From IMG/VR virus record IMGVR_UViG_2675903658_000004: a DNA stretch of 48,141 nt; one strand, given 5' to 3'. The DNA is from a virus. Taxonomy: Duplodnaviria > Heunggongvirae > Uroviricota > Caudoviricetes. Below the pieces are notes generated by a model, which saw only the letters and a list, made by a program, of their open reading frames with translations, was not told the origin of the DNA and did no database searches. Below, piece after piece: positions 12,603 through 48,141 of the stretch; position 1 is the stretch's first letter; each line of letters starts with the position of its first letter. A program made the position numbers and the translations under genes.

Positions 12603-12641
12603 TGTTTACCGCCCTGTAAATTGTAGATAAAAGTGGTTTCA

Positions 12642-13628: not shown

Positions 13629-13638
13629 TAAGCGGATC

Positions 13639-17296: not shown

Positions 17297-17369
17297 CCAT
17301 CTACATCACTGAGCTAATAACAGGCCTGCAGGTAATCGCAGGCCTTTTTATTTGGGGGAGAGGGAAGTC

Positions 17370-18851: not shown

Positions 18852-19038
18852 CCCATCTCAATCCCTTCAATACCTGAAAGAAAGCATAGAGCGGGCTTCA
18901 ATGTGCACAGAGTGGATTCTATCTAGGTTTAGCGCATACAGAAGATTGCCGGTAAAGGGCATGCCAAGCAAGTCGATGCTGCATATGCAAAAGAATGCGC
19001 GCTGGAAGGTATGGCGAGAACACAGGTTATGTGGCTGA
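18844..19038 (+). CDS. NinF-like small protein (divergent)
   Basis: N-terminus [10 protein letters not shown] resembles recalled lambda NinF, remainder diverges. Confidence 0.4.
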
Positions 19039-19057
19039 AAGAGGGGGTTATTAAGGC

Positions 19058-30862: not shown

Positions 30863-30898
30863 AGTCAGTGCTGACCATCAATAGGAGGTTTTTACAAT

Positions 30899-31246
30899 AT
30901 GGTGACGAAAACCATCACTGAACAGCGTGCGGAAGTACGTATTTTTGCCGGTAATGATCCGGCTCATACCGCCACAGGCAGCAGCGGGATTTCCTCGCCA
31001 ACACCGGCACTGACGCCCCTGATGCTGGATGAAGCCACCGGGAAACTGGTGGTCTGGGACGGACAGAAAGCCGGTAGTGCGGTTGGCATACTGGTACTGC
31101 CGCTTGAAGGCACAGAGACGGCGCTGACGTATTACAAGTCGGGAACCTTTGCGACGGAGGCAATCCACTGGCCTGAAAGTGTGGATGAACACAAAAAGGC
31201 CAACGCCTTTGCTGGCAGTGCCCTGAGTCACGCGGCGCTGCCGTAA
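30899..31246 (+). CDS. D: head decoration protein D
   Basis: 115-aa protein matching recalled lambda gpD. Confidence 0.9.
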   Translation: MVTKTITEQRAEVRIFAGNDPAHTATGSSGISSPTPALTPLMLDEATGKLVVWDGQKAGSAVGILVLPLEGTETALTYYKSGTFATEAIHWPESVDEHKKANAFAGSALSHAALP

Positions 31247-31303
31247 CACGTTATCAGGCCACCGCGGTGGCCTGACTGATTTCTGAATGAAAGGAACTGA
31301 TTT

Positions 31304-32332
31304 ATGGGATTGTTTACGACCCGCCAGTTACTCGGTTATACCGAACAAAAAGTTAAATTCCGTGCGCTGTTTCTGGAGCTGTTTTTCCGCCGTACGGTGA
31401 ATTTCCATACCGAAGAGGTGATGCTGGACAAAATTACCGGAAAAACGCCGGTGGCGGCCTATGTCTCCCCGGTTGTTGAAGGAAAAGTGCTGCGTCATCG
31501 TGGTGGTGAAACCCGCGTGTTGCGTCCGGGCTACGTCAAGCCGAAACACGAATTTAATTACCAGCAGGCGGTTGAGCGCCTTCCTGGTGAAGATCCATCT
31601 CAACTGAATGATCCGGCTTACCGCCGTCTGCGTATCATTACCGATAACCTCAAACAGGAAGAGCACGCGATTGTCCAGGTGGAAGAAATGCAGGCGGTAA
31701 ATGCTGTGTTGTATGGCAAATACACCATGGAAGGAGACCAGTTCGAGAAAATTGAGGTCGATTTTGGCAGGTCGACGAAGAATAACATCACTCAGGGTAG
31801 TGGTAAGGAGTGGTCAAAACAGGATCGTGACACGTTCGATCCTACACATGATATTGACCTCTACTGCGACCTGGCCAGCGGTCTTGTGAATATTGCCATT
31901 ATGGACGGTACCGTCTGGCGTCTTCTGAATGGTTTTAAGCTGTTCCGCGAAAAACTGGATACCCGTCGCGGTTCAAATTCTCAACTCGAAACGGCAGTGA
32001 AAGATCTGGGCGCAGTGGTGTCCTTCAAGGGGTATTACGGCGATCTGGCCATTGTGGTGGCGAAAACGTCTTATGTGGCAGAGGACGGTACCGAAAAACG
32101 TTATCTGCCGGAGGGCACACTGGTCCTGGGGAATACGGCAGCAGAGGGCATTCGTTGCTATGGTGCCATTCAGGATGCGCAGGCGTTGTCCGAAGGTGTG
32201 GTGGCCTCTTCCCGTTATCCGAAACACTGGCTGACTGTGGGCGATCCGGCCCGTGAATTCACCATGACGCAGTCCGCACCGCTGATGGTGTTGCCGGACC
32301 CGGATGAGTTTGTGGTGGTACAGGTGAAATAA
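31304..32332 (+). CDS. E: major capsid protein E
   Basis: 342-aa protein matching recalled lambda gpE. Confidence 0.95.
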   Translation: MGLFTTRQLLGYTEQKVKFRALFLELFFRRTVNFHTEEVMLDKITGKTPVAAYVSPVVEGKVLRHRGGETRVLRPGYVKPKHEFNYQQAVERLPGEDPSQLNDPAYRRLRIITDNLKQEEHAIVQVEEMQAVNAVLYGKYTMEGDQFEKIEVDFGRSTKNNITQGSGKEWSKQDRDTFDPTHDIDLYCDLASGLVNIAIMDGTVWRLLNGFKLFREKLDTRRGSNSQLETAVKDLGAVVSFKGYYGDLAIVVAKTSYVAEDGTEKRYLPEGTLVLGNTAAEGIRCYGAIQDAQALSEGVVASSRYPKHWLTVGDPAREFTMTQSAPLMVLPDPDEFVVVQVK

Positions 32333-32340
32333 TCCGTGAG

Positions 32341-32369
32341 CGGGGGCGAAATGCCCCCGTGTCTTTTTT
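32341..32369 (+). terminator. hairpin plus T-run immediately after E (likely partial terminator/attenuator)
   Basis: Perfect 7-bp stem CGGGGGC/GCCCCCG with loop GAAAT, followed by TGTCTTTTTT, 9 nt after the E stop. Confidence 0.5.
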
Positions 32370-32383
32370 CACAGGGGGCTGAT

Positions 32384-32758
32384 ATGGCAACGAAAGAGCA
32401 AAATCTGAAACGGCTTGATGAACTGGCCCTGATTCTGGGGCGTGAGCCGGATATATCCGGGAGTGCCGCAGAGATAGCGCAGCGGGTGGCAGAATGGGAA
32501 GAGGAAATGCAGTCATCCGGCGATGATGTACAGGTTATGAATATGGATATCCGGGAGCGGGAAACCGCGGCTCATGATGTTCGTGAGGAAACATCCGGCG
32601 CGTTAACGCGCATCAGAGTTCTGACCTGCCTCCATCTCTGTGGCGTTGATGGTGAAACGGGGGAATCCGTTGAGCTTGCGGATGTTGGTCGGGTGATTCT
32701 GATTATGTCCTCAGATGCAAAAACACACGTTGATGGTGGAATGGCTGTTTATGCGTGA
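32384..32758 (+). CDS. FI: DNA packaging protein FI
   Basis: Position and size match lambda FI; ATG at 32384. Confidence 0.75.
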   Translation: MATKEQNLKRLDELALILGREPDISGSAAEIAQRVAEWEEEMQSSGDDVQVMNMDIRERETAAHDVREETSGALTRIRVLTCLHLCGVDGETGESVELADVGRVILIMSSDAKTHVDGGMAVYA

Positions 32759-33104
32759 TTTTCAGAATGCCTTTGATGCCGCCCTTGCCGGGGTGGACAG
32801 TACGATTGTTGAAGTGATGGGCATCAGTGCGCAGTTCACCTCCGGTGCACAGCGTGGCGGCGAGGTTCATGGCGTTTTTGACGATCCGGAGTCGCTGGGT
32901 TTTGCCAGTAGTGGGATCCGTATTGAAGGAAGTAACCCGTCATTATTTGTGCTTACGGATACGGTTTGTGCTGTACGGCGTGGTGACACGCTGACCATTA
33001 ACGGCGAGATGTTCTGGGTGGACCGTGTTTCTCCGGATGACGGAGGGAGTTGTTATCTCTGGCTCAACCGGGGGCAACCACCTGCCGCCAGCCGTCGCCG
33101 CTGA
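32751..33104 (+). CDS. FII: head completion protein FII
   Basis: C-terminus ...FWVDRVSPDDGGSCYLWL... matches lambda gpFII; ATG at 32751. Confidence 0.85.
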   Translation: MRDFQNAFDAALAGVDSTIVEVMGISAQFTSGAQRGGEVHGVFDDPESLGFASSGIRIEGSNPSLFVLTDTVCAVRRGDTLTINGEMFWVDRVSPDDGGSCYLWLNRGQPPAASRRR

Positions 33105-33115
33105 AAGGGGGATGT

Positions 33116-33694
33116 ATGGCCATAAAAGGTCTTGAGCAGGCCGTTGAAAACCTCAGCCGTATCAGCAAAACGGCAGTGCCTGGTGCCGCCGCAATGGCCA
33201 TTAACCGCGTTGCTTCATCCGCGATATCGCAGTCGGCGTCACTGGTTGCCCGTGAGACAAAGGTACGCCGGAAACTGGTAAAGGAAAGGGCCAGGCTGAA
33301 AAGGGCCACGGTCAAAAATCCGCAGGCCAGAATCAAAGTTAACCGGGGGGATTTGCCCGTAATCAGGCTGGGTAATGCGCGGGTTGTCCTTTCGCGCCGC
33401 AGGCGTCGTAAAAAGGGGCAGCGTTCATCCCTGAAAGGTGGCGGCAGCGTGCTTGTGGTGGGTAACCGTCGTATTCCCGGCGCGTTTATTCAGCAACTGA
33501 AAAATGGCCGCTGGCATGTCATGCAGCGTGTGGCCGGGAAAAACCGTTACCCCATTGATGTGGTGAAAATTCCGATGGCGGTGCCGCTGACCACGGCGTT
33601 TAAACAGAATATTGAGCGGATACGGCGTGAGCGTCTTCCGAAAGAGCTGGGCTATGCGCTGCAGCATCAACTGAGGATGGTAATAAAGCGATGA
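33116..33694 (+). CDS. Z: tail completion protein Z
   Basis: MAIKGLEQAVENLSRISKTAVPGAAAMAINRVASS... matches lambda gpZ. Confidence 0.9.
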   Translation: MAIKGLEQAVENLSRISKTAVPGAAAMAINRVASSAISQSASLVARETKVRRKLVKERARLKRATVKNPQARIKVNRGDLPVIRLGNARVVLSRRRRRKKGQRSSLKGGGSVLVVGNRRIPGAFIQQLKNGRWHVMQRVAGKNRYPIDVVKIPMAVPLTTAFKQNIERIRRERLPKELGYALQHQLRMVIKR

Positions 33695-34086
33695 AACATA
33701 CTGAATTCCGTGCAGCCGTACTGGATGCACTGGAAAAACATGACACCGGGGCGACGCTTTTTGATGGTCGCCCCGCTGTTTTTGATGAGGCGGATTTTCC
33801 GGCAATTGCCGTTTATCTCACCGGCGCTGAATACACGGGCGAAGAGCTGGACAGCGATACCTGGCAGGCGGAGCTGCATATTGAAGTTTTCCTGCCTGCT
33901 CAGGTGCCGGATTCAGAGCTGGATTCGTGGATGGAAAGCCGGATTTATCCGGCGATGAGCGATATCCCGGCACTGTCAGATTTGATCACCAGTATGGTGG
34001 CCAGTGGCTATGACTACCGGCGCGACGATGATGCGGGCCTGTGGAGTTCAGCCGATCTGACTTATGTCATTACCTATGAAATGTGA
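33691..34086 (+). CDS. U: tail tube terminator U
   Basis: 131-aa protein matching recalled lambda gpU. Confidence 0.9.
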
Positions 34087-34093
34087 GGACGAT

Positions 34094-34834
34094 ATGCCAA
34101 CACCAAATCCTCTGGCACCGGTGAAAGGGGCCGGAACCACACTGTGGGTTTATAACGGGAGCGGCGACCCTTATGCAAACCCGCTTTCAGACAATGACTG
34201 GTCGCGTCTGGCAAAAATTAAAGACCTGACGCCCGGCGAACTGACCGCTGAGTCCTATGACGACAGTTATCTCGATGATGAAGATGCGGACTGGACCGCG
34301 ACCGGGCAGGGGCAGAAATCCGCCGGAGATACCAGCTTCACGCTGGCGTGGATGCCCGGAGAGCAGGGGCAGCAGGCGCTGCTGGCGTGGTTTAATGAAG
34401 GTGATACCCGTGCCTATAAAATCCGCTTCCCGAACGGCACGGTCGATGTGTTCCGTGGCTGGGTCAGCAGTATCGGTAAGGCGGTGACGGCGAAGGAAGT
34501 GATCACCCGTACGGTGAAGGTCACCAATGTGGGCCGTCCGTCAATGGCAGAAGATCGCAGTACGGTGACGGCGGCAACCGGTATGACCGTGACGCCTGCC
34601 AGCTCCTCGGTGGTGAAAGGGCAGAGCACCACGCTGACCGTGGCCTTCCAGCCGGAGGGCGCAACTGACAAGAGCTTCCGTGCGGTGTCAGCGGATAAAA
34701 CAAAAGCCACCGTGTCGGTCAGTGGTATGACCATCACCGTGAACGGCGTTGCTGCAGGCAAGGTCAACATTCCGGTTGTATCCGGTAATGGTGAACTTGC
34801 TGCGGTTGCAGAAATCACTGTCACCGACAGTTAA
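34094..34834 (+). CDS. V: major tail tube protein V (with C-terminal Ig-like domain)
   Basis: Matches recalled lambda gpV; ATG at 34094. Confidence 0.9.
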
Positions 34835-34849
34835 TCCGGAGAGTCAGCG

Positions 34850-35272
34850 ATGTTCCTGAAAACCGAATCATTTGAACATAACGGCGTGACCGTCACGCTT
34901 TCTGAACTGTCAGCCCTGCAGCGTATTGAGCATCTCGCCCTGATGAAACAGCAGGCAGAACAGGCGGAGTCAGACAGCAACCGGCAGGTTACTGTGGAAG
35001 ACGCCATCAGAACCGGTGCTTTTGTGGTGGCGATGTCCCTGTGGCATAACCATCCGCAGAAGACAAAGCAGCCTTCCATGAATGAAGCCGTTAAACAGAT
35101 TGAGCAGGAAGTGCTTACCACCTGGCCCGCGGAGGCAATTTCTCATGCTGAAAACGTGGTGTACCGGCTGTCCGGTATGTATGGGTTTGTGGTGAATGAT
35201 GCCCCTGACCAGGCAGAGGACTCCGGGCCTGCAGAGCCTGTTTCTGCGGGAAAGTGTTCGACGGTGAGCTGA
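34850..35272 (+). CDS. G: tail assembly chaperone G
   Basis: 140-aa protein matching recalled lambda gpG; ends just after the slippery site. Confidence 0.9.
   Translation: MFLKTESFEHNGVTVTLSELSALQRIEHLALMKQQAEQAESDSNRQVTVEDAIRTGAFVVAMSLWHNHPQKTKQPSMNEAVKQIEQEVLTTWPAEAISHAENVVYRLSGMYGFVVNDAPDQAEDSGPAEPVSAGKCSTVS
35248..35254 (+). promoter_or_regulatory. programmed -1 frameshift slippery heptamer G GGA AAG (G to G-T)
   Basis: GGGAAAG lies in the G frame as GGA AAG, as in lambda; the T frame follows in -1. Confidence 0.8.
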
Positions 35273-35688
35273 GTTTTGCCCTGAAACTGGCGCGAGAGAT
35301 GGGGCGACCTGACTGGCGCGCCATGCTTGCCGGGATGTCATCCACGGAGTATGCCGACTGGCACCGCTTTTACAGTACCCATTATTTTCATGATGTTCTG
35401 CTGGATATGCACTTTTCCGGGCTGACGTACACTGTGCTCAGCCTGTTTTTCAGCGATCCGGATATGCATCCGCTGGATTTCAGTTTGCTGAACCGGCGTG
35501 AGGATGACGAAGAGCCTGAAGATGATGTGCTGATGCAGAAAGCGGCAGGGCTTACCGGAGGCGTCCGCTTTGACCCGGACGGAAATGAAGTTATCCCCGC
35601 TTCCCCGGATATGGCGGGCATGACGGAGGATGACGTAATGCTGATGACAGTATCAGAAGGGATCGCAGGAGGAGTCCGGTATGGCTGA
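35254..35688 (+). CDS. T: tail assembly protein T (made as a G-T fusion by -1 frameshift)
   Basis: -1 frame ORF matching recalled lambda gpT; has no independent ATG start. Confidence 0.85.
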   Translation: MFDGELSFALKLAREMGRPDWRAMLAGMSSTEYADWHRFYSTHYFHDVLLDMHFSGLTYTVLSLFFSDPDMHPLDFSLLNRREDDEEPEDDVLMQKAAGLTGGVRFDPDGNEVIPASPDMAGMTEDDVMLMTVSEGIAGGVRYG

Positions 35689-38242
35689 ACCGGTAGGCGA
35701 TCTGGTCGTTGATTTAAGTCTGGATGCGGCCAGATTTGACGAGCAGATGGCCAGAGTCAGGCGTCATTTTTCCGGTACGGAAAGTGATGCGAAAAAAACA
35801 GCGGCAGTCGTTGAACAGTCGCTGAGCCGACAGGCGCTGGCTGCACAGAAAGCGGGGATTTCCGTCGGGCAGTATAAAGCCGCCATGCGTATGCTGCCTG
35901 CACAGTTCACCGACGTGGCCACGCAGCTTGCAGGCGGGCAAAGCCCGTGGCTGATCCTGCTGCAACAGGGTGGTCAGGTTAAGGACTCCTTCGGCGGGAT
36001 GATCCCCATGTTCCGGGGGCTTGCCGGTGCGATCACCCTGCCGATGGTCGGGGCCACCTCGCTGGCGGTGGCGACCGGTGCGCTGGCGTATGCCTGGTAT
36101 CAGGGTAACTCAACCCTGTCCGATTTCAACAAAACGCTGGTCCTTTCCGGCAATCAGTCGGGTCTGACGGCAGATCGTATGCTGGTCCTGTCCAGAGCCG
36201 GGCAGGCGGCAGGGCTGACGTTTAACCAGACCAGCGAGTCACTCAGCGCACTGGTTAAGGCGGGAGTAAGCGGTGAGGCTCAGATTGCATCCATCAGCCA
36301 GAGTGTGGCGCGTTTCTCCTCTGCATCCGGCGTGGAGGTGGACAAGGTCGCTGAAGCCTTCGGGAAGCTGACCACTGACCCGACGTCGGGGCTGACGGCG
36401 ATGGCGCGCCAGTTCCATAACGTAACGGCGGAGCAGATTGCGTATGTTGCTCAGTTGCAGCGTTCCGGCGATGAAACCGGGGCATTGCAGGCGGCGAACG
36501 AGGCCGCAACGAAAGGGTTTGATGACCAGACCCGACGCCTGAAAGAGAACATGGGCACGCTGGAAACCTGGGCAGACAGGACAGCGCGGGCATTCAAATC
36601 CATGTGGGATGCGGTGCTGGATATTGGTCGTCCTGATACCGCTCAGGAGATGCTGATTAAGGCAGAGGCTGCGTTTAAGAAAGCGGACGACATCTGGAAT
36701 CTGCGCAAGGATGATTATTTTGTTAACGATGAAGCGCGGGCGCGTTACTGGGATGATCGTGAAAAGGCCCGTCTTGCGCTTGAAGCCGCCCGAAAGAAGG
36801 CTGAGCAGCAGACTCAACAGGACAAAAATGCGCAGCAGCAGAGCGATACCGAAGCATCACGGCTGAAATATACCGAAGAGGCGCAGAAGGCTTACGAACG
36901 GCTGCAGACGCCGCTGGAGAAATATACCGCCCGTCAGGAAGAACTGAACAAGGCACTGAAAGACGGGAAAATCCTGCAGGCAGATTACAACACGCTGATG
37001 GCGGCGGCGAAAAAGGATTATGAAGCGACGCTGAAAAAGCCGAAACAGTCCGGCGTGAAGGTGTCTGCGGGCGATCGTCAGGAAGACAGTGCTCATGCTG
37101 CCCTGCTGACGCTTCAGGCTGAACTCCGGACGCTGGAGAAGCATGCCGGAGCAAATGAGAAAATCAGCCAGCAGCGCCGGGATTTGTGGAAGGCGGAGAG
37201 TCAGTTCGCGGTACTGGAGGAGGCGGCGCAACGTCGCCAGCTGTCTGCACAGGAGAAATCCCTGCTGGCGCATAAAGATGAGACGCTGGAGTACAAACGC
37301 CAGCTGGCTGCACTTGGCGACAAGGTTACGTATCAGGAGCGCCTGAACGCGCTGGCGCAGCAGGCGGATAAATTCGCACAGCAGCAACGGGCAAAACGGG
37401 CCGCTATTGATGCGAAAAGCCGGGGGCTGACTGACCGGCAGGCAGAACGGGAAGCCACGGAACAGCGCCTGAAGGAACAGTATGGCGATAATCCTCTGGC
37501 GCTGAATAACGTCATGTCAGAGCAGAAAAAGACCTGGGCGGCTGAAGACCTGCTTCGCGGGAACTGGATGGCAGGCCTGAAGTCCGGCTGGAGTGAGTGG
37601 GAAGAGAGTGCCACGGACAGTATGTCGCAGGTTAAAAGTGCTGCCACGCAGACCTTTGATGGTATTGCGCAGAATATGGCGGCGATGCTGACCGGCAGTG
37701 AACAGAACTGGCGCAGCTTCACCCGTTCCGTGCTGTCCATGATGACAGAAATTCTGCTTAAGCAGGCAATGGTGGGGATTGTCGGGAGTATCGGCAGCGC
37801 TATTGGCGGGGCTGTTGGTGGCGGCGCATCCGCGTCAGGCGGTACAGCCATTCAGGCCGCTGCGGCGAAACTCCATTTTGCAACCGGAGGATTTACGGGA
37901 ACCGGCGGCAAATATGAGCCAGCGGGGATTGTTCACCGTGGTGAATTTGTCTTCACGAAGGAGGCAACCAGCCGGATTGGCGTGGGAAATCTCTACCGGC
38001 TGATGCGCGGCTATGCCACCGGCGGTTATGTCGGTGGCACCGGAAGTCCGGCGCAAATGCGGCGTTCAGAGGGTATCAGGTTTGAGCAGAACAACAACGT
38101 GGTGATTCAGAACGACGGTACGAATGGTCTGCCAGGTCCACAGATGATGAAGGCGGTGTATGACATGGCCCGCAAGGGTGCCCGTGATGAAATCCAGGCA
38201 CAGATGCGCGATGGTGGTCTGTTCTCCGGAGGTGGACGATGA
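35681..38242 (+). CDS. H: tail tape-measure protein H
   Basis: 853 aa, lambda gpH-like, long coiled-coil and Gly-rich C-terminus. Confidence 0.95.
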   Translation: MAEPVGDLVVDLSLDAARFDEQMARVRRHFSGTESDAKKTAAVVEQSLSRQALAAQKAGISVGQYKAAMRMLPAQFTDVATQLAGGQSPWLILLQQGGQVKDSFGGMIPMFRGLAGAITLPMVGATSLAVATGALAYAWYQGNSTLSDFNKTLVLSGNQSGLTADRMLVLSRAGQAAGLTFNQTSESLSALVKAGVSGEAQIASISQSVARFSSASGVEVDKVAEAFGKLTTDPTSGLTAMARQFHNVTAEQIAYVAQLQRSGDETGALQAANEAATKGFDDQTRRLKENMGTLETWADRTARAFKSMWDAVLDIGRPDTAQEMLIKAEAAFKKADDIWNLRKDDYFVNDEARARYWDDREKARLALEAARKKAEQQTQQDKNAQQQSDTEASRLKYTEEAQKAYERLQTPLEKYTARQEELNKALKDGKILQADYNTLMAAAKKDYEATLKKPKQSGVKVSAGDRQEDSAHAALLTLQAELRTLEKHAGANEKISQQRRDLWKAESQFAVLEEAAQRRQLSAQEKSLLAHKDETLEYKRQLAALGDKVTYQERLNALAQQADKFAQQQRAKRAAIDAKSRGLTDRQAEREATEQRLKEQYGDNPLALNNVMSEQKKTWAAEDLLRGNWMAGLKSGWSEWEESATDSMSQVKSAATQTFDGIAQNMAAMLTGSEQNWRSFTRSVLSMMTEILLKQAMVGIVGSIGSAIGGAVGGGASASGGTAIQAAAAKLHFATGGFTGTGGKYEPAGIVHRGEFVFTKEATSRIGVGNLYRLMRGYATGGYVGGTGSPAQMRRSEGIRFEQNNNVVIQNDGTNGLPGPQMMKAVYDMARKGARDEIQAQMRDGGLFSGGGR

Positions 38243-38568
38243 AAACCTTCCGCTGGAAAGTGAAACCCGGGATGGATGTGACATCGGCTCCTTCCGTCAG
38301 GGAGGTGCGCTTTGGTGATGGCTATTCCCAGCGTGCGCCTGCCGGGCTGAACGCTGACCTGAAAACGTACAGCGTGACGCTGTCTGTCTCCCGTGAGGAG
38401 GCCACGGCGCTGGAGTCGTTTCTGGCTGAGCACGGGGGCTGGAAGGCCTTTCTGTGGACGCCGCCTTATGGTTACAGGCAGATAAAGGTGACCTGCGCAA
38501 AATGGTCGTCGCGGGTCAGTATGCTGCGTGTTGAGTTCAGCGCAGAGTTTGAACAGGTGGTGAACTGA
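38239..38568 (+). CDS. M: minor tail protein M
   Basis: 109-aa protein matching recalled lambda gpM. Confidence 0.9.
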   Translation: MKTFRWKVKPGMDVTSAPSVREVRFGDGYSQRAPAGLNADLKTYSVTLSVSREEATALESFLAEHGGWKAFLWTPPYGYRQIKVTCAKWSSRVSMLRVEFSAEFEQVVN

Positions 38569-39266
38569 TGCAGGATATCCGGCAGGAAACATTGAATGAA
38601 TGCACCCGTGCGGAGCAGTCGGCCAGCGTGGTGCTCTGGGAAATCGATCTGACAGAGGTCGGTGGAGAACGTTATTTTTTCTGTAATGAGCAGAACGAAA
38701 AAGGTGAGCCGGTCACCTGGCAGGGGCGACAGTATCAGCCGTATCCCATTCAGGGGAGTAGTTTTGAACTGAATGGCAAAGGCACCAGTACGCGCCCCAC
38801 GCTGACGGTTTCTAACCTGTACGGTATGGTCACCGGGATGGTGGAAGATCTGCAGAGTCTGGTCGGCGGAACGGTGGTCAGGCGTAAGGTTTACGCCCGT
38901 TTTCTGGATGCGGTGAACTTCGTCAACGGAAACAGCGACGCCGATCCGGAGCAGGAGGTGATCAGCCGCTGGCGCATCGAGCAGTGCAGCGAACTGAGTG
39001 CGGTCAGTGCCTCCTTTGTACTGTCCACACCGACGGAAACGGATGGTGCCGTTTTTCCGGGGCGCATCATGCTGGCTAATACCTGCACCTGGACCTATCG
39101 CGGTGATGAGTGCGGTTATCACGGTCCGGCGGTCGCGGATGAATATGATCAGCCGACTTCCGATATCACGAAGGATAAATGCAGCAAATGCCTGAGCGGC
39201 TGTAAGTTTCGCAATAACGTCGGCAACTTTGGCGGCTTCCTTTCCATTAACAAACTTTCGCAGTAA
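38568..39266 (+). CDS. L: minor tail protein L
   Basis: 232-aa protein matching recalled lambda gpL. Confidence 0.9.
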   Translation: MQDIRQETLNECTRAEQSASVVLWEIDLTEVGGERYFFCNEQNEKGEPVTWQGRQYQPYPIQGSSFELNGKGTSTRPTLTVSNLYGMVTGMVEDLQSLVGGTVVRRKVYARFLDAVNFVNGNSDADPEQEVISRWRIEQCSELSAVSASFVLSTPTETDGAVFPGRIMLANTCTWTYRGDECGYHGPAVADEYDQPTSDITKDKCSKCLSGCKFRNNVGNFGGFLSINKLSQ

Positions 39267-39271
39267 ATCCC

Positions 39272-40015
39272 ATGACAGAGACAGAATCAGCGATTCTGGC
39301 GCATGCCCGGCGATGTGCGCCAGCGGAGTCGTGCGGCTTCGTGGTGAGAGCGCCGGAGGGGGAAAGATATTTTCCCTGCGTGAATATCTCCGGTGAGCCG
39401 GAGGCGTATTTCCGGATGGCTCCGGAGGACTGGCTGCAGGCAGAGATGCAGGGTGAGATTGTGGCGCTGGTCCACAGTCATCCCGGTGGTCTGCCCTGGC
39501 TGAGTGAGGCCGACCGGCGGCTGCAGGTGCAGAGTGATTTGCCGTGGTGGCTGGTCTGCCGGGGGGCGATTCATAAGTTCCGCTGTGTGCCGCATCTCAC
39601 CGGGCGGCGCTTTGAGCACGGGGTGACGGACTGTTACACGCTGTTCCGGGACGCTTACCATCTGGCGGGGATTGAGATGCCGGACTTTCATCGTGAGGAT
39701 GACTGGTGGCGTAACGGCCAGAATCTCTATCTTGATAATCTGGAGGCCACAGGGCTGTATCAGGTGCCGTTGTCAGCGGCGCAGCCGGGCGATGTGCTGC
39801 TGTGCTGCTTTGGTTCATCGGTGCCGAATCATGCCGCTATTTACTGTGGTGACGGCGAGCTGCTGCACCATATTCCTGAACAACTGAGTAAACGAGAGAG
39901 GTATACCGACAAATGGCAGCGACGCACACACTCCCTCTGGCGTCACCGGGCATGGCGCGCATCTGCCTTTACGGGGATTTACAACGATTTGGCCGCCGCA
40001 TCGACCTTCGTGTGA
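39272..40015 (+). CDS. K: tail tip assembly protein K (JAB/MPN plus NlpC/P60-like domains)
   Basis: 247-aa protein matching recalled lambda gpK. Confidence 0.9.
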   Translation: MTETESAILAHARRCAPAESCGFVVRAPEGERYFPCVNISGEPEAYFRMAPEDWLQAEMQGEIVALVHSHPGGLPWLSEADRRLQVQSDLPWWLVCRGAIHKFRCVPHLTGRRFEHGVTDCYTLFRDAYHLAGIEMPDFHREDDWWRNGQNLYLDNLEATGLYQVPLSAAQPGDVLLCCFGSSVPNHAAIYCGDGELLHHIPEQLSKRERYTDKWQRRTHSLWRHRAWRASAFTGIYNDLAAASTFV

Positions 40016-40584
40016 AAACGGGGGCTGAAGCCATCCGCGCACTGGCCACACAGCTCCCGGTGTTTCGTCAGAAACTGAGCGACGGCTGGTATCAGGTACG
40101 GATTGCCGGGCGGGACGTCAGCACGTCCGGGTTAACGGCGCAGTTACATGAGACTCTGCCTGATGGCGCTGTGATTCATATTGTTCCCAGAGTCGCCGGG
40201 GCCAAGTCAGGTGGCGTATTCCAGATTGTCCTGGGGGCTGCCGCCATTGCCGGATCATTCTTTACCGCCGGAGCCACCCTTGCAGCATGGGGGGCAGCCA
40301 TTGGGGCCGGTGGTATGACCGGCATCCTGTTTTCTCTCGGTGCCAGTATGGTGCTCGGTGGTGTGGCGCAGATGCTGGCACCGAAAGCCAGAACTCCCCG
40401 TACACAGACAACGGATAACGGCAAACAGAACACCTATTTCTCCTCACTGGATAACATGGTTGCCCAGGGCAATGTTCTGCCGGTTCTGTACGGTGAAATG
40501 CGCGTGGGGTCACGCGTGGTTTCTCAGGAGATCAGCACGGCAGACGAAGGGGATGGTGGTCAGGTTGTGGTGATTGGTCGCTGA
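39913..40584 (+). CDS. I: tail assembly protein I
   Basis: 223-aa protein matching recalled lambda gpI. Confidence 0.9.
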   Translation: MAATHTLPLASPGMARICLYGDLQRFGRRIDLRVKTGAEAIRALATQLPVFRQKLSDGWYQVRIAGRDVSTSGLTAQLHETLPDGAVIHIVPRVAGAKSGGVFQIVLGAAAIAGSFFTAGATLAAWGAAIGAGGMTGILFSLGASMVLGGVAQMLAPKARTPRTQTTDNGKQNTYFSSLDNMVAQGNVLPVLYGEMRVGSRVVSQEISTADEGDGGQVVVIGR

Positions 40585-40644
40585 TGCAAAATGTTTTATG
40601 TGAAACCGCCTCCGGGCGGTTTTATCGTTTATGGAGCATGAGGA

Positions 40645-43600
40645 ATGGGTAAAGGCAGCAGTAAGGGGCATACCCCGCGCGAAGCGAAGGACAACCTGAA
40701 ATCATCCCAGATGCTGAGCGTGATAGACGCCATCAGCGAAGGGCCGGTTGAAGGTCCGGTGGATGGATTAAAAAGCGTGCTGCTGAACAGTACGCCGGTG
40801 CTGGACAGTGAGGGGAATACCAATATATTCGGCGTCACGGTGGTGTTCCGGGCCGGTGAGCAGGAGCAGACACCGCCGGAGGGATTTGAATCCTCCGGCT
40901 CCGAGACGGTGCTCGGTACAGAAGTGAAATATGACACGCCGATCACCCGGACCATCACGTCGGCAAACATTGACCGTCTGCGTTTTACTTTCGGCGTGCA
41001 GGCACTGGTGGAAACCACCTCAAAGGGGGACAGGAATCCATCGGAAGTCCGCCTGCTGGTTCAGATTCAACGTAACGGTGGCTGGGTGACGGAAAAAGAC
41101 ATCACCATTAAGGGCAAAACCACGTCGCAGTATCTGGCCTCGGTGGTGGTGGATAACCTGCCGCCGCGCCCGTTTAATATCCGGATGCGCAGGATGACGC
41201 CGGACAGCACCACAGACCAGTTGCAGAACAAAACGCTCTGGTCGTCATACACCGAAATCATCGATGTGAAACAGTGCTACCCGAACACGGCACTGGTCGG
41301 CGTACAGGTGGACTCGGAGCAGTTCGGCAGCCAGCAGGTGAGCCGTAATTATCATCTTCGCGGGCGCATTCTGCAGGTGCCGTCGAACTATAACCCGCAG
41401 ACGCGGCAATACAGCGGTATCTGGGACGGAACGTTTAAGCCAGCATACAGCAACAACATGGCCTGGTGTCTGTGGGATATGCTGACCCATCCGCGCTACG
41501 GCATGGGGAAACGTCTTGGTGCGGCAGATGTGGATAAATGGGCGCTGTATGTCATCGGCCAGAATTGCGACCAGTCAGTGCCGGACGGCTTTGGCGGCAC
41601 GGAGCCGCGCATCACCTGTAATGCGTACCTGACCACACAGCGCAAGGCGTGGGATGTGCTCAGTGATTTTTGCTCGGCGATGCGCTGTATGCCGGTATGG
41701 AACGGGCAGACGCTGACATTCGTGCAGGACCGACCGTCGGATAAGGTGTGGACCTATAACCGCAGTAATGTGGTGATGCCGGATGATGGCGCGCCGTTCC
41801 GCTACAGCTTCAGCGCCCTGAAAGACCGCCATAATGCCGTTGAGGTGAACTGGATTGACCCGGATAACGGCTGGGAGACGGCGACAGAGCTTGTGGAGGA
41901 CACGCAGGCCATTGCCCGTTACGGTCGTAACGTCACGAAGATGGATGCCTTTGGCTGTACCAGCCGGGGGCAGGCACACCGCGCCGGGCTGTGGCTGATT
42001 AAAACGGAGCTGCTGGAAACGCAGACCGTGGACTTCAGCGTGGGTGCAGAAGGGCTTCGCCATGTACCGGGCGATGTCATTGAAATCTGTGATGATGACT
42101 ATGCGGGGATCAGCATCGGCGGGCGCGTGCTGGCGGTGAACAACCAGACGCGGACACTGACGCTCGACCGTGAAATCACGCTGCCATCCTCCGGCACCAC
42201 GCTGATAAGCCTGGCTGACGGACAGGGGAATCCGGTCAGCGTGGAGGTCCAGTCCGTCACCGACGGCGTGAAGGTAAAAGTGAGCCGTGTTCCTGACGGC
42301 GTTGCAGAATACAGCGTGTGGGGGCTGAAGTTGCCAACGTTGCGCCAGCGCCTGTTCCGCTGTGTGAGTATCCGTGAGAACGATGACGGCACGTATGCCA
42401 TCACTGCCGTGCAGCATGTACCGGAAAAAGAGGCCATCGTGGATAACGGGGCGCACTTTGACGGCGACCAGAGCGGCACGGTGAATGGTGTCACGCCGCC
42501 AGCGGTGCAGCACCTGACTGCCGAAGTCACCGCAGACAGCGGGGAATATCAGGTGCTGGCGCGCTGGGACACGCCGAAGGTGGTGAAGGGGGTGAGCTTT
42601 ATGCTTCGCCTGACCGTGGCAGCGGATGACGGCAGTGAGCGGCTGGTCAGCACGGCCCGGACGACGGAAACCACATACCGCTTCAGGCAACTGGCGCTGG
42701 GGAACTACAGGCTGACAGTCCGGGCGGTAAATGCGTGGGGGCAGCAGGGCGATCCGGCATCGGTATCGTTCCGGATTGCCGCACCGGCAGCGCCGTCGCA
42801 GATTGAGCTGACACCGGGGTATTTTCAGATAACCGCCACGCCGCATCTTGCGGTTTATGATCCGACGGTACAGTTTGAGTTCTGGTTCTCGGAAAAGCGG
42901 ATTGCGGATATCAGGCAGGTTGAAACCACAGCACGCTATCTTGGCACGGCGCTGTACTGGATAGCCGCCAGTATCAATATCAAACCGGGCCATGATTATT
43001 ATTTTTACATCCGCAGTGTGAACACCGTTGGCAAATCGGCATTTGTGGAGGCTGTTGGCCAGCCGAGTGATGATGCATCCGGCTATCTGAATTTTTTCAA
43101 AGGAGAGATAGGGAAAACCCATCTGGCTCAGGAGTTGTGGACGCAGATTGATAACGGTCAGCTTGCGCCTGACCTGGCTGAAATCAGGACGTCCATTACG
43201 GGTGTCAGCAATGAAATCACGCAGACCGTCAATAAGAAACTGGAAGACCAGAGTGCAGCGATCCAGCAGATACAGAAGGTTCAGGTTGATACAAATAATA
43301 ACCTGAACAGCATGTGGGCTGTGAAGCTGCAGCAGATGCAGGACGGACGCCTTTATATCGCGGGTATTGGTGCCGGTGTTGAGAATACTCCTGACGGTAT
43401 GCAGAGTCAGGTGCTGCTGGCGGCGGACAGGATTGCGATGATTAATCCTGCGAATGGCAACACAAAGCCGATGTTTGTTGGGCAGGGCGATCAGATATTC
43501 ATGAACGAAGTGTTCCTGAAATATCTGACGGCTCCCACCATTACCAGCGGTGGCAATCCCCCAACGTTTTCACTGACACCTGATGGTCGACTTTCTGCGA

Positions 43601-44127
43601 AAAATGCGGATATCAGCGGTAACGTGAACGCGAACTCCGGGACGCTCAACAACGTCACGATTAATCAGAACTGTCGGATTCTGGGAAAACTGTCAGCTAA
43701 CCAGATTGAAGGTGATATTGTCAAAACGGTGGGAAAAGCCTTTCCGAGAAATGGCAGTTATGCCAGCGGTACAATAACGGTCACTGTGTACGATGACCAG
43801 GCTTTTGACCGTCAGATAGTAGTCCCCCCCGTTCTGTTTCGTGGGGGTAAGCATGAAAACTTCAACAGCAACAACCAACAGTCATACTGGTATTCAACCT
43901 GTAAGCTGCAGGTACTGAAGAACGGACAGGAAATCTTTCAGCAACCCGCGACGGATGTCAGCAGGGTATTTTCATCAGTCATTGATATGCCTGCCGGACA
44001 CGGCCATGTCACCCTGACTTTCAATGTTTCTTCATATGGTGCTAATAACTGGACGCCAACGACCAGTATCAGCGACCTTCTTGTTGTTGTGATGAAGAAA
44101 TCTACAGCCGGTATCAGTATCAGTTGA
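40645..44127 (+). CDS. J: central tail fiber / host specificity protein J
   Basis: 1160 aa, lambda gpJ-like over most of its length. Confidence 0.95.
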
Positions 44128-44146
44128 ATTTTATAACCCAGATACG

Positions 44147-44170
44147 GGCGCCAGAAATGGCGCCTTTTTT
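44147..44170 (+). terminator. rho-independent terminator after J
   Basis: GGCGCC / GGCGCC perfect 6-bp stem with loop AGAAAT, followed by TTTTTT. Confidence 0.55.
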
Positions 44171-44179
44171 ATTTGTGGA

Positions 44180-46189
44180 GTGAATATGGCAGTACAGATT
44201 TCAGGCGTGCTGAAAGACGGTGCAGGAAAACCGATACAGAACTGCACCATTCAGCTCAAAGCAAAACGTAACAGCACCACGGTTGTGGTGAACACGGTGG
44301 CCTCAGAAAATCCGGATGAAGCCGGACGTTACAGCATGGATGTCGAGTATGGCCAGTACAGCGTTATCCTGCTGGTTGAAGGTTTTCCGCCTTCACATGC
44401 CGGGGCCATCACCGTGTATGAGGATTCTAAGCCGGGGACATTGAATGATTTTCTGGGCGCTGCAACAGAAGATGATGTTCGTCCGGAGGCACTGTATCGT
44501 TTTGAAAAGATGGTGGAAGAGGTGGCACGCAACGCTGAAGCCGCCTCTCAGAGCGCAGCGGCAGCAAAGAAATCAGAAACAGCAGCGGCATCGTCCAGGA
44601 ATGCGGCGAAAACATCAGAGACGAATGCAGGTAACAGCGCGAAAGCGGCAGCTTCTTCAAAAACAGCCGCACAAAACGCAGCAACAGCGGCAGAACGTTC
44701 AGAGACAAATGCCCGTGCGTCAGAAGAAGCCTCCGCAGACAGTGAAGAGGCTTCCCGCCGTAATGCAGAGTCAGCCGCTGAAAATGCCGGAGTCGCCACC
44801 ACAAAAGCGCGGGAGGCCGCAGCAGACGCAACAAAGGCCGGGCAGAAAAAGGATGAGGCTCTGTCGGCAGCGACACGGGCTGAAAAGGCGGCAGACCGCG
44901 CAGAAGTCGCAGCGGAAGTGACTGCAGAGCCCTATGCGAATATAGTGCCGCCGCTGCCTGATGTGTGGATACCGTTTAACGATTCACTGGATATGATTGC
45001 GGGTTTTTCTCCGGGCTATAAAAAAATAGCTATTGGTGACGATGTGGTTCAGGTCGCCAGTGATAAACAGGTTAATTTCAGTCGCGCATCAACGGCAACA
45101 TATATCAACAAATCTGGCGAACTGAAAACGGCGGAAATTAATGAGCCGCGATTTGAGTGTGATGGCCTGCTTATTGAGGGACAAAGAACGAACTACATGC
45201 TCAATTCGGAAAGTCCAGCCAGCTGGGGGAAGTCATCAAACATGGATGTGCCCGAAACCGGGACAGATAGTTTTGGTTTTACTTATGGAAAGTTTGTCTG
45301 CAACGATTCTCTGGTTGGGCAAACTTCGGCTATTAATATGGCATCAATTGCTGCAACAAAGTCAGTTGATGTCTCAGGCGATAACAAGTACGTGACAACC
45401 TCATGCCGTTTTAAAACAGAACGACAGGTAAGGTTACGTATACGGTTTGATAAGTATGATGGTAGTGCAACAACTTTTCTTGGCGATGCGTACATTGATA
45501 CGCAAACGCTTGAAATTAATATGACAGGTGGGGCTGCCGGCAGAATTACGGCACGAGTCAGGAAGGATAAGACCACAGGCTGGATTTTTGCAGAGGCAAC
45601 GATTCAGGCAATTGATGGTGAGTTAAAAATAGGCTCTCAGATACAGTATTCTCCTGAGCGGGGTGGGGCAACAGTATCTGGTGACTATATTTATCTTGCC
45701 ACCCCACAAGTAGAGAATGGGCCGTGTGTATCATCATTTATTATTTCAGGAGGCAGCGCAACGACAAGAGCCAGTGATTTGGTTAGTATCCCCACCAGAA
45801 ATAATCTTTATAAGTTACCATTTACTTTTTTACTTGAGATTCATAAAAACTGGGATATTGCACCAAACGCCGCACCCCGCGTGTGGGATATAGCAGCAGC
45901 CAATACCGGGCAATCAGCAATTGCAGCAATCAACAGAGGTAGTGGTAAGTTATATATGAGTCTGTCAAACCCTTCAGGCTTGTATGTTAATAGCGCAGCG
46001 ACAGATGTATTTGCAGAGAAAACCACATTTGGATGTATTGCAAAAGCTGATGGTCACTTTCATGTGGTGACAAATGGTAAAGCGGTTAATGAAGTTTATT
46101 GTGAATATAATGGTGTGACCGCTGATAAAAATATCCGATTTGGAGGGCAGACGAATACTGGAGAACGACATCTGTTTGGCCATATTTGA
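44180..46189 (+). CDS. stf: side tail fiber protein (Stf-like N-terminus, distinct C-terminal domain); last 20 codons displaced by IS629 copy 3
   Basis: N-terminus MAVQISGVLKDGAGKPIQNCTIQLKAKRNSTTVVVNTV... matches lambda Stf; Ala/Ser-rich repeats; the ORF's stop TGA is the first three bases of the IS629 terminus. Confidence 0.85.
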   Translation: MNMAVQISGVLKDGAGKPIQNCTIQLKAKRNSTTVVVNTVASENPDEAGRYSMDVEYGQYSVILLVEGFPPSHAGAITVYEDSKPGTLNDFLGAATEDDVRPEALYRFEKMVEEVARNAEAASQSAAAAKKSETAAASSRNAAKTSETNAGNSAKAAASSKTAAQNAATAAERSETNARASEEASADSEEASRRNAESAAENAGVATTKAREAAADATKAGQKKDEALSAATRAEKAADRAEVAAEVTAEPYANIVPPLPDVWIPFNDSLDMIAGFSPGYKKIAIGDDVVQVASDKQVNFSRASTATYINKSGELKTAEINEPRFECDGLLIEGQRTNYMLNSESPASWGKSSNMDVPETGTDSFGFTYGKFVCNDSLVGQTSAINMASIAATKSVDVSGDNKYVTTSCRFKTERQVRLRIRFDKYDGSATTFLGDAYIDTQTLEINMTGGAAGRITARVRKDKTTGWIFAEATIQAIDGELKIGSQIQYSPERGGATVSGDYIYLATPQVENGPCVSSFIISGGSATTRASDLVSIPTRNNLYKLPFTFLLEIHKNWDIAPNAAPRVWDIAAANTGQSAIAAINRGSGKLYMSLSNPSGLYVNSAATDVFAEKTTFGCIAKADGHFHVVTNGKAVNEVYCEYNGVTADKNIRFGGQTNTGERHLFGHI

Positions 46190-46240
46190 ACCGCCCCGGG
46201 AATCCTGGAGACTAAACTTCCTGAGAAAGAGGTAAACAGG

Positions 46241-46567
46241 ATGACTAAAAATACTCGTTTTTCCCCCGAAGTCCGTCAACGGGCAGTCCGTATGGTTCTG
46301 GAAAGTCAGAGCGAATATGACTCACAATGGGCGACAATTTGTTCCATTGCTCCAAAGATTGGCTGTACGCCGGAGACTCTGCGTGTCTGGGTTCGCCAGC
46401 ATGAGCGGGATACCGGGGGCGGTGATGGAGGGCTCACCACCGCTGAACGTCAGCGTCTGAAAGAGCTGGAACGTGAAAATCGTGAACTGCGCTGCAGTAA
46501 CGATATCCTTCGCCAGGCTTCCGCTTATTTTGCGAAGGCGGAGTTCGACCGCCTCTGGAAAAAATGA
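46241..46567 (+). CDS. IS629 OrfA
   Basis: Protein identical to copy 1 OrfA. Confidence 0.9.
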
Positions 46568-47454
46568 TGCCACTGCTGGATAAGCTGCGTGAGCAGTACG
46601 GGGTCGGACCGCTATGCAGCGAACTGCATATTGCCCCGTCAACGTATTACCACTGTCAGCAACAGCGACATCATCCGGATAAACGCAGTGCCCGTGCGCA
46701 GCGCGATGACTGGCTGAAGAAAGAGATACAGCGCGTATACGATGAAAATCACAAGGTATACGGTGTGCGTAAAGTCTGGCGTCAGTTGTTACGGGAAGGT
46801 ATCAGAGTGGCCAGATGCACTGTGGCACGTCTCATGGCGGTTATGGGACTTGCCGGTGTTCTCCGGGGTAAAAAGGTCCGTACGACCATCAGCCGGAAAG
46901 CCGTTGCCGCAGGCGACCGCGTAAACCGTCAGTTCGTGGCAGAACGACCTGACCAGCTGTGGGTGGCTGATTTTACTTACGTCAGCACATGGCGGGGCTT
47001 CGTCTATGTGGCGTTCATCATTGATGTGTTTGCCGGATACATCGTGGGGTGGCGGGTCTCATCGTCCATGGAAACGACATTCGTGCTGGATGCACTGGAG
47101 CAGGCGTTATGGGCCCGTCGACCGTCCGGCACGGTCCATCACAGTGATAAAGGTTCTCAGTATGTATCGCTGGCCTACACACAGCGGCTTAAGGAAGCCG
47201 GATTACTGGCATCAACAGGAAGTACAGGCGACTCGTATGACAACGCGATGGCGGAGAGCATCAATGGTCTTTACAAAGCGGAGGTAATACACCGTAAGAG
47301 CTGGAAAAACCGTGCAGAAGTGGAACTGGCCACACTCACGTGGGTGGACTGGTATAACAATCGACGATTGCTGGAAAGGCTGGGCCATACTCCTCCGGCA
47401 GAAGCAGAAAAAGCTTATTATGCTTCCATCGGAAACGATGATCTGGCAGCCTGA
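46564..47454 (+). CDS. IS629 OrfB transposase
   Basis: Protein identical to copy 1 OrfB. Confidence 0.9.
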
Positions 47455-47556
47455 GTTCACAGATAAAACACTCTCCAGGAAACCCGGGGCGGTTCATATT
47501 CGCAATTTCCGCATATGGCATAAAGAATTAAATGACAGGCAATTAAAAGAGGTCGT

Positions 47557-47835
47557 ATGAAAGATTTAACTTTGAAGTTTCATGACAAACTGCAGTTTAA
47601 GGCCTTCCTGTCATCTCTTGACTGGGAGGAGGATGAAGACCTCCAGAATAAACTGTTAGTCGATGAAATTGGTTTCACCTACACAGAAACAGGGGTAACA
47701 GAAGAGGGAGAACCTGTCTGTGTCCGGAATGACGGTTATTTTGTCAACATTCGCATTCTTGATGACTTGTTTGATGTTTCTGTATTCTCTGATTATGTCG
47801 TGGAGCTGGAAACACCGCTTCGGGAATGGAGCTGA
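47557..47835 (+). CDS. hypothetical acidic protein downstream of the tail fiber
   Basis: 92-aa ORF whose ATG overlaps the reconstructed tail-fiber stop (GTATGA). Confidence 0.45.
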   Translation: MKDLTLKFHDKLQFKAFLSSLDWEEDEDLQNKLLVDEIGFTYTETGVTEEGEPVCVRNDGYFVNIRILDDLFDVSVFSDYVVELETPLREWS

Positions 47836-47847
47836 AAGGAGGAAATA

Positions 47848-48141
47848 ATGGATATAAGCCCCTTACTTCATGCGCTTTGTGCTGTGGCTGCGCAGATACT
47901 GGTTGGTCTTTTTACCGGAAACTGGGCTTACGGAGCGATAGCCGGTTGTACGTTCTTCATTGCGCGTGAACATACCCAGGCAGAATATCGCTGGATTGAA
48001 ATGTTCGGGCATGGCAAGCGAATGAATATGCCGTGGTGGGGCGGTTTTGATCCGCGAGCTTGGGATGTGGCAAGCCTGATGGATTTTGCTGTGCCGGTGG
48101 TGGCGTGTCTGCTGGTCTGGCTGTTGGTTAATCGTGGGTGA
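47848..48141 (+). CDS. hypothetical small membrane protein
   Basis: 97-aa ORF with two hydrophobic segments; GGAGG 7 nt upstream of the ATG; stop is the last codon of the window. Confidence 0.45.
   Translation: MDISPLLHALCAVAAQILVGLFTGNWAYGAIAGCTFFIAREHTQAEYRWIEMFGHGKRMNMPWWGGFDPRAWDVASLMDFAVPVVACLLVWLLVNRG

Follow-up and report, generated by a model that had tools for sequence, protein, structure and literature searches.

Truncation of the side tail fibre gene by IS629 in a phage 21-like prophage that was probably already defective

We analysed a 48,141-nucleotide (nt) stretch of viral DNA (IMG/VR record IMGVR_UViG_2675903658_000004; Caudoviricetes), hereafter the window, in which the side tail fibre gene (stf) of a lambdoid prophage is interrupted near its 3' end by a copy of the insertion sequence (IS) IS629. 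The insertion is real, and the open reading frame (ORF) that terminates at a TGA supplied by the element is a truncated allele of the 686-amino-acid (aa) stf gene of phage 21; i.e., the 667-aa tail fibre of the carrier lineage corresponds to a pseudogenised phage 21 stf. The explanation that we hold as very probable, taken as a whole, is that of a late IS629 hit that truncated stf in an already defective prophage, in the course of neutral decay. We infer the neutrality of the event from lesions that the prophage shares with a close relative.

Direct reading of the sequence (43800..48141), with scripted inspection of the junctions, places the element at 46187..47496 on the + strand, where it spans 1310 bp in the same orientation as stf. 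It is bounded by a perfect 4-bp duplication of the target, TATT; duplications of 3 or 5 bases fail to match at both abutting flanks. The insertion point falls between two codons and the IS opens with TGA, so that translation ends at once: the stop codon at 46187..46189 consists of the first three bases of the element, just as the initial annotation of this DNA had proposed. The likely start of stf is the ATG at 44186 (MAVQISG, position 1 of the Pfam phage_tail_N domain), vs the GTG at 44180 called by the ORF tool. In silico removal of the IS together with one TATT copy yields a continuous 2061-nt ORF of 686 codons, which ends ...ERHLFGHI followed by RNFRIWHKELNDRQLKEVV and a stop codon. This restored stop (47558..47560) overlaps the ATG at 47557 of the following 92-aa gene by 4 nt (ATGA), so that the earlier claim of a restorable frame running into the next start codon is upheld, as is the claim that the fibre is shortened. 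The size of the loss needs correction, however; 19 of the 686 residues are missing, and the figure of 20 that had been given for residues applies to codons, with the stop counted.

The restored gene is the stf of phage 21, which vindicates the earlier identification of the interrupted gene as that of a side tail fibre. Compared base by base, the 2061 nt of restored stf and the next 585 nt show 0 mismatches to the phage 21 record OL657228.1, in which the corresponding coding sequence (CDS) is annotated as "side tail fiber" (CPT_21_22, 19234..21294, 2061 nt, 686 aa); its end overlaps the start of the following gene by 4 nt. An 800-bp reconstruction of the empty site is 100% identical in phage 21 and in four other records from a phage collection (ev017, under two accessions, PhiR57_1, and PhiR63_2), as well as in many complete Escherichia coli genomes, e.g., ATCC 11775 and APEC O1:K1:H7; of 5426 such genomes, 452 cover at least 80% of this 800-bp probe. 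The sequence of the empty-site alleles, 100% identical, is ...GGCCATATTCGCAATTTC; in an annotated complete genome, the predicted stop is precisely where the fibre CDS terminates, overlapping the 92-aa gene by 4 nt. Chance is ruled out as the source of the restored frame, because both the empty site and the whole restored gene match relatives and phage 21 at 100%.

Sequence reading, domain content, and nucleotide identity all agree with the first assignment of the element, and of its TATT duplication, to IS629. The element ends read TGAACCGCCCCGGG...CCCGGGGCGGTTCA, with the IS beginning TGAACCGCCCCGGGAATCCTGGAGA and ending TCTCCAGGAAACCCGGGGCGGTTCA; the terminal inverted repeats are imperfect and about 25 bp long, the left repeat matching the reverse complement of the right over 14 consecutive positions and then at 9 of 11 (23 of the first 25 positions in total). 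A length of ~1310 bp and imperfect repeats starting 5'-TG and ending CA-3' are the hallmarks of IS629, and both are found here. With at least 95% nucleotide identity to IS629 taken to denote membership, the element is 99.4-99.5% identical over all 1310 bp to the "insertion sequence: IS3 family IS629" of the Shiga toxin (Stx)-phage records LC567824.1 and LC567828.1; a phage-21-like prophage of E. coli EC38 (AF017626.1), whose int is a pseudogene, contains within that gene an IS that is 99.9% identical to the element. The product of orfB contains rve, HTH_21, and rve_3 domains and matches NCBIfam NF033516 (transpos_IS3) at 314.6 bits (cut-off, 160). The start of orfB lies on an A6 run, 1 nt ahead of the stop codon of orfA, and programmed frameshifting is predicted; for identical IS copies in E. 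coli O2:H1 HM670 (NZ_CP082772.1, locus record L012), the strain with the nearest complete genome, the annotation gives a fusion by programmed frameshifting and an AL1L pseudoknot, and a fused 404-aa transposase product is called in locus record L002. IS629 is known for target duplications of 3-4 bp and for the residence of 62% of its copies within prophages (PMC3271280), and its sites differ among closely related strains (Rump et al. 2011, PMC3271280). The duplications at the IS629 copies of the window (4, 3, and 3 bp) lie within the published range.

Comparison with intact orthologues leaves little room for an authentic 667-aa fibre. Past residue 667, 117 of 120 homologues continue, 88 with the identical 19-residue end and 29 with a related RN[FL]R[IL]W[HN]K.L.D.Q end, and the modal length is 686 aa. 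The remaining 3 of the 120 are cut short: the IS allele itself accounts for two (ending ...GHI), and a third stops sooner, at ...EYNG. Proteins ending ...LFGHI are found only as copies of the IS-bearing allele (P0078, P0079, and P0141). The fibre thus does not end naturally near position 46186, nor do the 20 codons beyond the element belong to another gene, because these homologues extend past residue 667 and because the 19 sense codons lie within the fibre CDS in both phage 21 and HM670. Across the C-terminal domain, a variable middle is framed by conserved edges, and among domain variants that are 45-49% identical overall, no substitution is seen at 9 of the 19 lost positions (R164, N165, R167, W169, K171, L173, D175, Q177, and E180, in domain numbering). 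Six positions of the lost tail are still invariant in an alignment of 34 sequences that reaches down to 24% identity. In these alignments, conservation within what is predicted to be a C-terminal jelly-roll domain of laminin G (LamG)/concanavalin A (ConA)-like type is highest in the lost segment RNFRIWHKELNDRQLKEVV.

Profile matches along the fibre place the lesion within this distal domain. The N-terminal domain of Stf (PF08400, phage_tail_N; residues 1-131, 230 bits vs a cut-off of 26.6) is followed by an Ala-rich coiled-coil region, and residues 329-529 match NCBIfam NF048003 (gene transfer agent [GTA]/phage head spike fibre, GTA_spike_fiber; 55.3 bits vs a cut-off of 36), a domain that lies upstream of the truncation and is intact. 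Its motif Q-x-E-x-G...SS.I....TRA.D also matches the structure of the RcGTA head spike fibre (6tb9). In the restored protein, Laminin_G_3 (PF13385) aligns to residues 560-681 (profile positions 27-149 of 151, E = 5.1e-5, 23.9 bits vs a gathering threshold of 27.6), and this match disappears from the truncated protein; precomputed PF13385 matches exist for the close homologues P0002, P0121, and P0123, and a further homologue (P0186) is named "LamG-like jellyroll fold domain-containing protein". The match of the truncated protein to PHROG 1419 stops at profile position 774 of 793, i.e., 19 positions short.

Structure prediction provides a view of what those residues may contribute. With a more diverse alignment of 34 sequences, AlphaFold2 (AF2) modelled the C-terminal 182 aa with a predicted local distance difference test (pLDDT) score of 75.6, a predicted template modelling (pTM) score of 0.74, and about 10 strands, all residues from 27 onwards being confident. 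The last β-strand of this model comprises residues 161-169 (GHIRNFRIW; block pLDDT 85) and the terminal helix residues 175-181 (DRQLKEV; block pLDDT 81); the cut made by the IS falls after I163 and so would remove 6 of the 9 residues of the last strand along with the whole helix. Foldseek matches for the model include the lectin-like Hc-N domain of botulinum neurotoxin (BoNT), CBM40 sialic-acid-binding modules, and pentraxins (TMq about 0.6, probability 1.0), with the best viral matches being tail fibres of the E. coli phages rolling, EdH4, and NBEco002 (TMq 0.71-0.77) and with many "LamG-like jellyroll" proteins among the viral matches. On this basis, the C-terminal region is predicted to be a β-sandwich jelly-roll of the ConA-like/LamG class. 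The fold of the C-terminal 155 residues of Stf resembles that of lectin-type domains (CBM40, BoNT Hc-N, and pentraxins) at TMq 0.6-0.77, whereas sequence identity to the solved jelly-roll structures is just 11-19%; a sequence-based profile search of the PDB returned nothing for the LamG-like domain, the only match being that of the short linker motif to 6tb9. Since most of the last strand and the helix are gone, and since the segment concerned is the most conserved, the distal domain without its last 19 residues probably misfolds or is unstable. The initial annotation had suggested that truncation may affect folding or receptor binding; conservation and the predicted model lend their support to the former.

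The 3' region of the fibre gene is disrupted in other ways among homologues of stf residues about 600-686 (P0138, P0139, and P0080): (i) an IS2-type OrfA-like ORF reads into ...VFAEKTTFGC...EYNG, (ii) a methyltransferase-containing ORF starts with the stf tail ...RNFRIWHKELN, and (iii) a "side tail fiber" record of phage D2, 643 aa in length, ends ...EYNG. Rearrangements seem to be frequent at the 3' end of the fibre gene.

When a junction probe (500 bp of fibre joined to 500 bp of IS) was run by megablast against 5426 complete RefSeq E. coli genomes, none proved to carry the filled junction, and an exact search did not find it among GTDB species-representative genomes, to which the source lineage evidently does not belong. 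Several NCBI E. coli assemblies and metagenome contigs do carry the junction with the exact 667-aa protein, some on contigs of >5 Mb; in three independent NCBI assemblies, the insertion is present with both flanks on contigs of 1.09-5.25 Mb that differ from the window by 0-7 mismatches in 11,956 nt and have the gene order 667-aa stf, IS629, 92-aa gene, 97-aa gene, sitDCBA. Carrier strains include those of GCA_001030435.1 and GCA_014140565.1. In all, the exact 667-aa protein occurs on 49 contigs (72 index blocks). Shorter contigs with the filled junction break within the IS; the locus records L005-L011 end inside the element or just after it. Filled in some assemblies and in none of the 5426 complete genomes, the site is therefore a lineage-specific polymorphism, and this particular stf site for IS629 appears not to have been reported previously.

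Behind the same stf::IS629 junction, records L005 and L009 have a different tape-measure gene (1075 aa vs 853 aa). Independent insertions at a single hot spot were considered for the truncated proteins P0078 and P0079, which are only 87% identical overall to the query, and were rejected because the junction and the 1.1-1.2 kb before it are 100% identical to the window, the divergence being restricted to the 5' coiled coil. A single insertion with later recombination upstream would produce such a pattern, as would chimeric assembly of the metagenome. For HM670, a genuine stf frameshift was likewise entertained, as the Prokaryotic Genome Annotation Pipeline (PGAP) records there a pseudo N-terminal fragment and an overlapping 574-aa CDS ("phage head spike fiber domain-containing protein"); it was rejected because the HM670 DNA is identical to the continuous ORF of the window, which makes the split an annotation artefact. 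PGAP splits the 686-aa stf in the same manner in SCU-108 (L001, 4400..6460) and in HM670 (L012, 47791..49851).

The state of the remaining prophage places the stf insertion in context. Across the window, int, xis, exo/bet/gam, a cI-like gene, O, P, Q, a porin gene, lysis genes, Nu1/A, portal, the head/tail cluster, J, and stf mark out a lambdoid prophage; stf is directly downstream of J, in the order tape measure, M, L, K, I, J, stf of a lambda-type tail cluster. On sequence grounds, the prophage is phage-21-like and integrated at icd, the phage 21 attachment site, which the HM670 prophage adjoins. Relative to the window, HM670 has 15 mismatches and no gaps over 1..43539 and is 100% identical over 43537..46186. 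It shares the IS629 insertions in the DUF1382 gene and in O as well as the TGA within the terminase gene, whereas its stf site is empty; its third IS629 is located inside J instead (45832..47141 in HM670, equivalent to 43537..43539 of the window), with a 3-bp duplication. Both halves of O are annotated in HM670 as "replication protein" pseudogenes, and in the window the left half of the split gene carries the Pfam Phage_rep_O domain. The terminase gene of HM670 is annotated by PGAP as "phage terminase large subunit family protein, internal stop"; three complete genomes, HM670 included, are identical over this stretch, and most other relatives differ by 1 nt. Gene J is intact in the window; its identical counterparts in L002-L004 have recorded Pfam GpJ domains.

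The lesions common to the window and HM670 are therefore, by parsimony, older than the stf insertion, and the third IS629 would have inserted separately in the two lineages, its target being stf in the window and J in HM670. With O split by IS629 and the large terminase gene bearing a nonsense codon, it follows that the stf insertion hit an already defective prophage, one which probably could no longer replicate or package its DNA. The presence of three identical IS629 copies within 42 kb suggests recent local hopping.

We thus envisage the following series of events. A copy of IS629 transposed into the 3' end of stf in a phage-21-like prophage at icd of an E. coli lineage, duplicating TATT; the TGA of the element, placed at a codon boundary, imposed an immediate stop and a 667-aa protein. 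The distal and presumably receptor-binding jelly-roll domain would then misfold or become unstable, leaving the N-terminal, coiled-coil, and spike-fibre parts untouched. All of this came after the loss of O (to IS629) and of the large terminase (to the nonsense codon), with neutral, lineage-specific decay through local IS hopping, and no functional change, as the likely outcome. The functional consequences of the truncation are largely moot, because the prophage already had the O and terminase lesions.

Other readings of the same data have to be set against this one. That the fibre naturally ends near 46186, with the 19 downstream codons being non-coding or part of another gene and the IS being harmless, has a negligible probability: the homologues that continue with a conserved tail to a modal 686 aa speak against it, as do the 686 aa encoded by functional phage 21 in identical DNA and the PHROG and Pfam profiles that reach about 19 positions past the truncation. 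We give practically no credence either to an assembly artefact, i.e., a collapsed or mis-joined IS629 repeat. The element is multicopy and short-read contigs often break there, as seen for L005-L011; nevertheless, the contig has each of the two junctions, the exact target is perfectly duplicated over 4 bp, and the full insertion recurs in the three independent assemblies with no more than 7 mismatches. A truncated fibre that is still functional, its last 19 residues being dispensable, is an unlikely alternative; while homologues differ in the final six residues (KEVV and similar) and the last two have a pLDDT of 65, the first 14 lost residues hold 8 invariant positions among variants that are otherwise about 47% identical and form, in the model, the core of the last jelly-roll strand (pLDDT about 85), and the LamG profile match vanishes on truncation.

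An adaptive insertion, whether by abolishing the fibre or by altering expression of the 92-aa and 97-aa genes or of sitABCD through polarity or an outward promoter in the IS, strikes us as very unlikely. The spread of the allele to many assemblies would be in keeping with it, as would the ready selection of lambda stf loss-of-function mutants under some conditions (PMC2762979); however, virion phenotypes are not selectable in a prophage that has already lost O and the large terminase, the third IS of HM670 in J looks like random local hopping, the right end of the IS has no promoter-like site on the + strand, promoter and terminator counts do not exceed those of shuffled sequence, and sitABCD is transcribed convergently and thus does not lie downstream of the IS. 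There is, in our estimation, a very slim chance that the insertion is functional in the sense of re-wiring the two downstream phage 21 genes, or that the truncated allele is kept because a lysogen gains by making no functional fibre or for donation to incoming phages through recombination; if true, this would be a selected regulatory or host-range event instead of decay. Our preferred account of a neutral truncation is itself weakened by certain points. The proposed misfolding derives from conservation and a predicted model; a first AF2 run (residues 250-686, 27 close homologues) gave a good middle domain and a C-terminal domain with pLDDT below 60, and the Laminin_G_3 score of 23.9 falls below the gathering threshold of 27.6. 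The metagenome contigs L010 and L011 display the same junction behind a divergent stf 5' region (5' 200-900 nt, coiled coil), which could reflect recombination or chimeric assembly. Moreover, recombination can still pass on fibre genes from a defective prophage, and a helper phage can complement it, so that the allele is not necessarily inconsequential. Coordinates are collected in Table 1.

Table 1. Features of the window bearing on the stf insertion, the earlier lesions, and the downstream region
Feature	Coordinates	Strand	Remarks
Second IS629 copy, 100% identical, CTT 3-bp duplication	5268..6577	+	Interrupts DUF1382 gene (- strand)
Third IS629 copy, 100% identical, GAC 3-bp duplication	14686..15995	-	Splits lambda-O-type replication initiator gene
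In-frame TGA in large terminase subunit gene (25618..27588)	26560..26562	+	...CENTGM(stop)TRDG...
Gene J (central tail fibre/host specificity), 1160 aa	40645..44127	+	Intact in window; "central tail fiber" in phage 21
Terminator-like hairpin with T-run, between J and stf	44146..44165	+	8-pair stem, 6 GC pairs, then TTTTTTATTTG
Truncated side tail fibre ORF, 667 aa	44186..46189	+	Ends in IS-derived TGA
Left target-site duplication copy, TATT	46183..46186		Abuts IS left end
IS left terminal inverted repeat	46187..46211	+	First three bases, TGA, form the new stop codon
IS629 orfA, 108 aa, HTH_Tnp_1	46241..46567	+	From ORF and Pfam
IS629 orfB, 296 aa, rve DDE integrase core	46564..47454	+	-1 frame relative to orfA
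IS right terminal inverted repeat	47472..47496	+	From sequence reading
Right target-site duplication copy, TATT	47497..47500		Abuts IS right end
Orphaned stf 3' end, 19 codons (RNFRIWHKELNDRQLKEVV) and natural TGA stop	47501..47560	+	Identical to phage 21 stf 3' end
92-aa gene	47557..47835	+	PHROG 1361; phage 21 CPT_21_23, hypothetical protein, annotated ribosome-binding site (RBS)
97-aa putative membrane protein gene	47848..48141	+	PHROG 1443; phage 21 CPT_21_24, 2 transmembrane domains

With respect to transcription, the hairpin between J and stf is identical in sequence to one annotated as "terminator" in the phage 21 record, and late transcription must therefore already read through terminators in order to reach stf. 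Inside the IS, no convincing + strand terminator was detected, one weak terminator-like site having emerged from the scan; over the scanned region, 6 terminator-like sites were found vs 4.3 +/- 1.8 in shuffles, and the promoter counts were likewise within those of shuffles. The 92-aa gene retains its own AAGAGG Shine-Dalgarno sequence, also present in phage 21; the ATGA stop/start coupling to stf translation is lost in the filled allele. The suggestion in the initial annotation that the insertion separates the downstream genes from late transcription finds no support in the present analysis. Neither the acidic 92-aa protein nor the 97-aa protein has a Pfam or NCBIfam match. Given the translational coupling to stf in the intact allele, one might speculate that the 92-aa protein is a fibre-assembly factor. 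Both small genes are conserved after stf in phage 21 and its relatives.

Numerous features of this region are shared with known systems. Phage 21 (OL657228.1) has the same J-stf terminator, RBS, 4-nt stop/start overlap, and downstream sitABCD as the window; by comparison, stf of the window is interrupted after codon 667, and the window also has IS629 in O and in the DUF1382 gene and the nonsense codon in the terminase gene. IS629 copies in prophages of O157:H7 and other Shiga toxin-producing E. coli (STEC) (Ooka et al. 2009, as cited in PMC3271280) represent the same element, with 3-4 bp duplications and a bias to prophages (Rump et al. 2011, PMC3271280), whereas the host here is of a non-O157 lineage and the target is a phage-21-type prophage at icd. 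The EC38 case (AF017626.1) likewise concerns a phage-21-type prophage at icd with a phage gene pseudogenised by IS629; there the target is int, as opposed to stf in the window. Nothing is thus mechanistically new, because IS629 insertions in prophages are documented, a phage-21-type precedent exists, and stf is a known target; pseudogenisation of a prophage gene by IS629 is a mechanism already well documented in E. coli (PMC3271280).

The loss-of-function lesion in stf of lambda PaPa, of natural or laboratory origin, is comparable to that of the window, save that it is a frameshift (Hendrix and Duda 1992, as cited in PMC2762979) as opposed to an IS insertion. Lambda relies on J as its essential receptor-binding protein; its side fibres are accessory, and stf mutants are viable and easily selected (PMC2762979); for phage 21, the receptor-binding system is J with LamB (PMC11336670), and our literature search for the function or receptor of phage 21 Stf found nothing specific. 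The C-terminus of lambda Stf is of the T4 gp37 type and Tfa-dependent, whereas phage 21 Stf ends in a LamG-like domain, with no Tfa homologue encoded downstream.

The main value of these findings is for annotation: the 667-aa fibre should be read as a pseudogene product, and the 60 nt that follow the IS as an orphaned gene end. They also document the stepwise dismantling by IS629 of a phage-21-like, sitABCD-carrying prophage at icd. The stf::IS629 site could serve as a lineage marker for IS-typing by polymerase chain reaction, and caution is warranted in host-range prediction or engineering, as the fibre of the window prophage is not an intact receptor-binding protein.

Additional genes of the prophage merit brief mention. 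The sitABCD iron/manganese transporter operon is located directly after the 97-aa gene, on the opposite strand (12048..15497 in L002-L004; 4633..7800 in L013); it lies within the packaged phage 21 genome (OL657228.1) and therefore counts as cargo of the phage, not as an adjacent chromosomal island. A gene for an OmpC/NmpC-type porin is found at 20215..21357 (- strand; NF007841, 521 bits), with Q on one side and the lysis genes on the other. After the lysis genes, at about 23088..23381 (- strand), there is a gene for an iss/bor-type serum-survival lipoprotein, annotated in the near-identical HM670 prophage. Porin and iss/bor lipoprotein genes are typical lambdoid morons.

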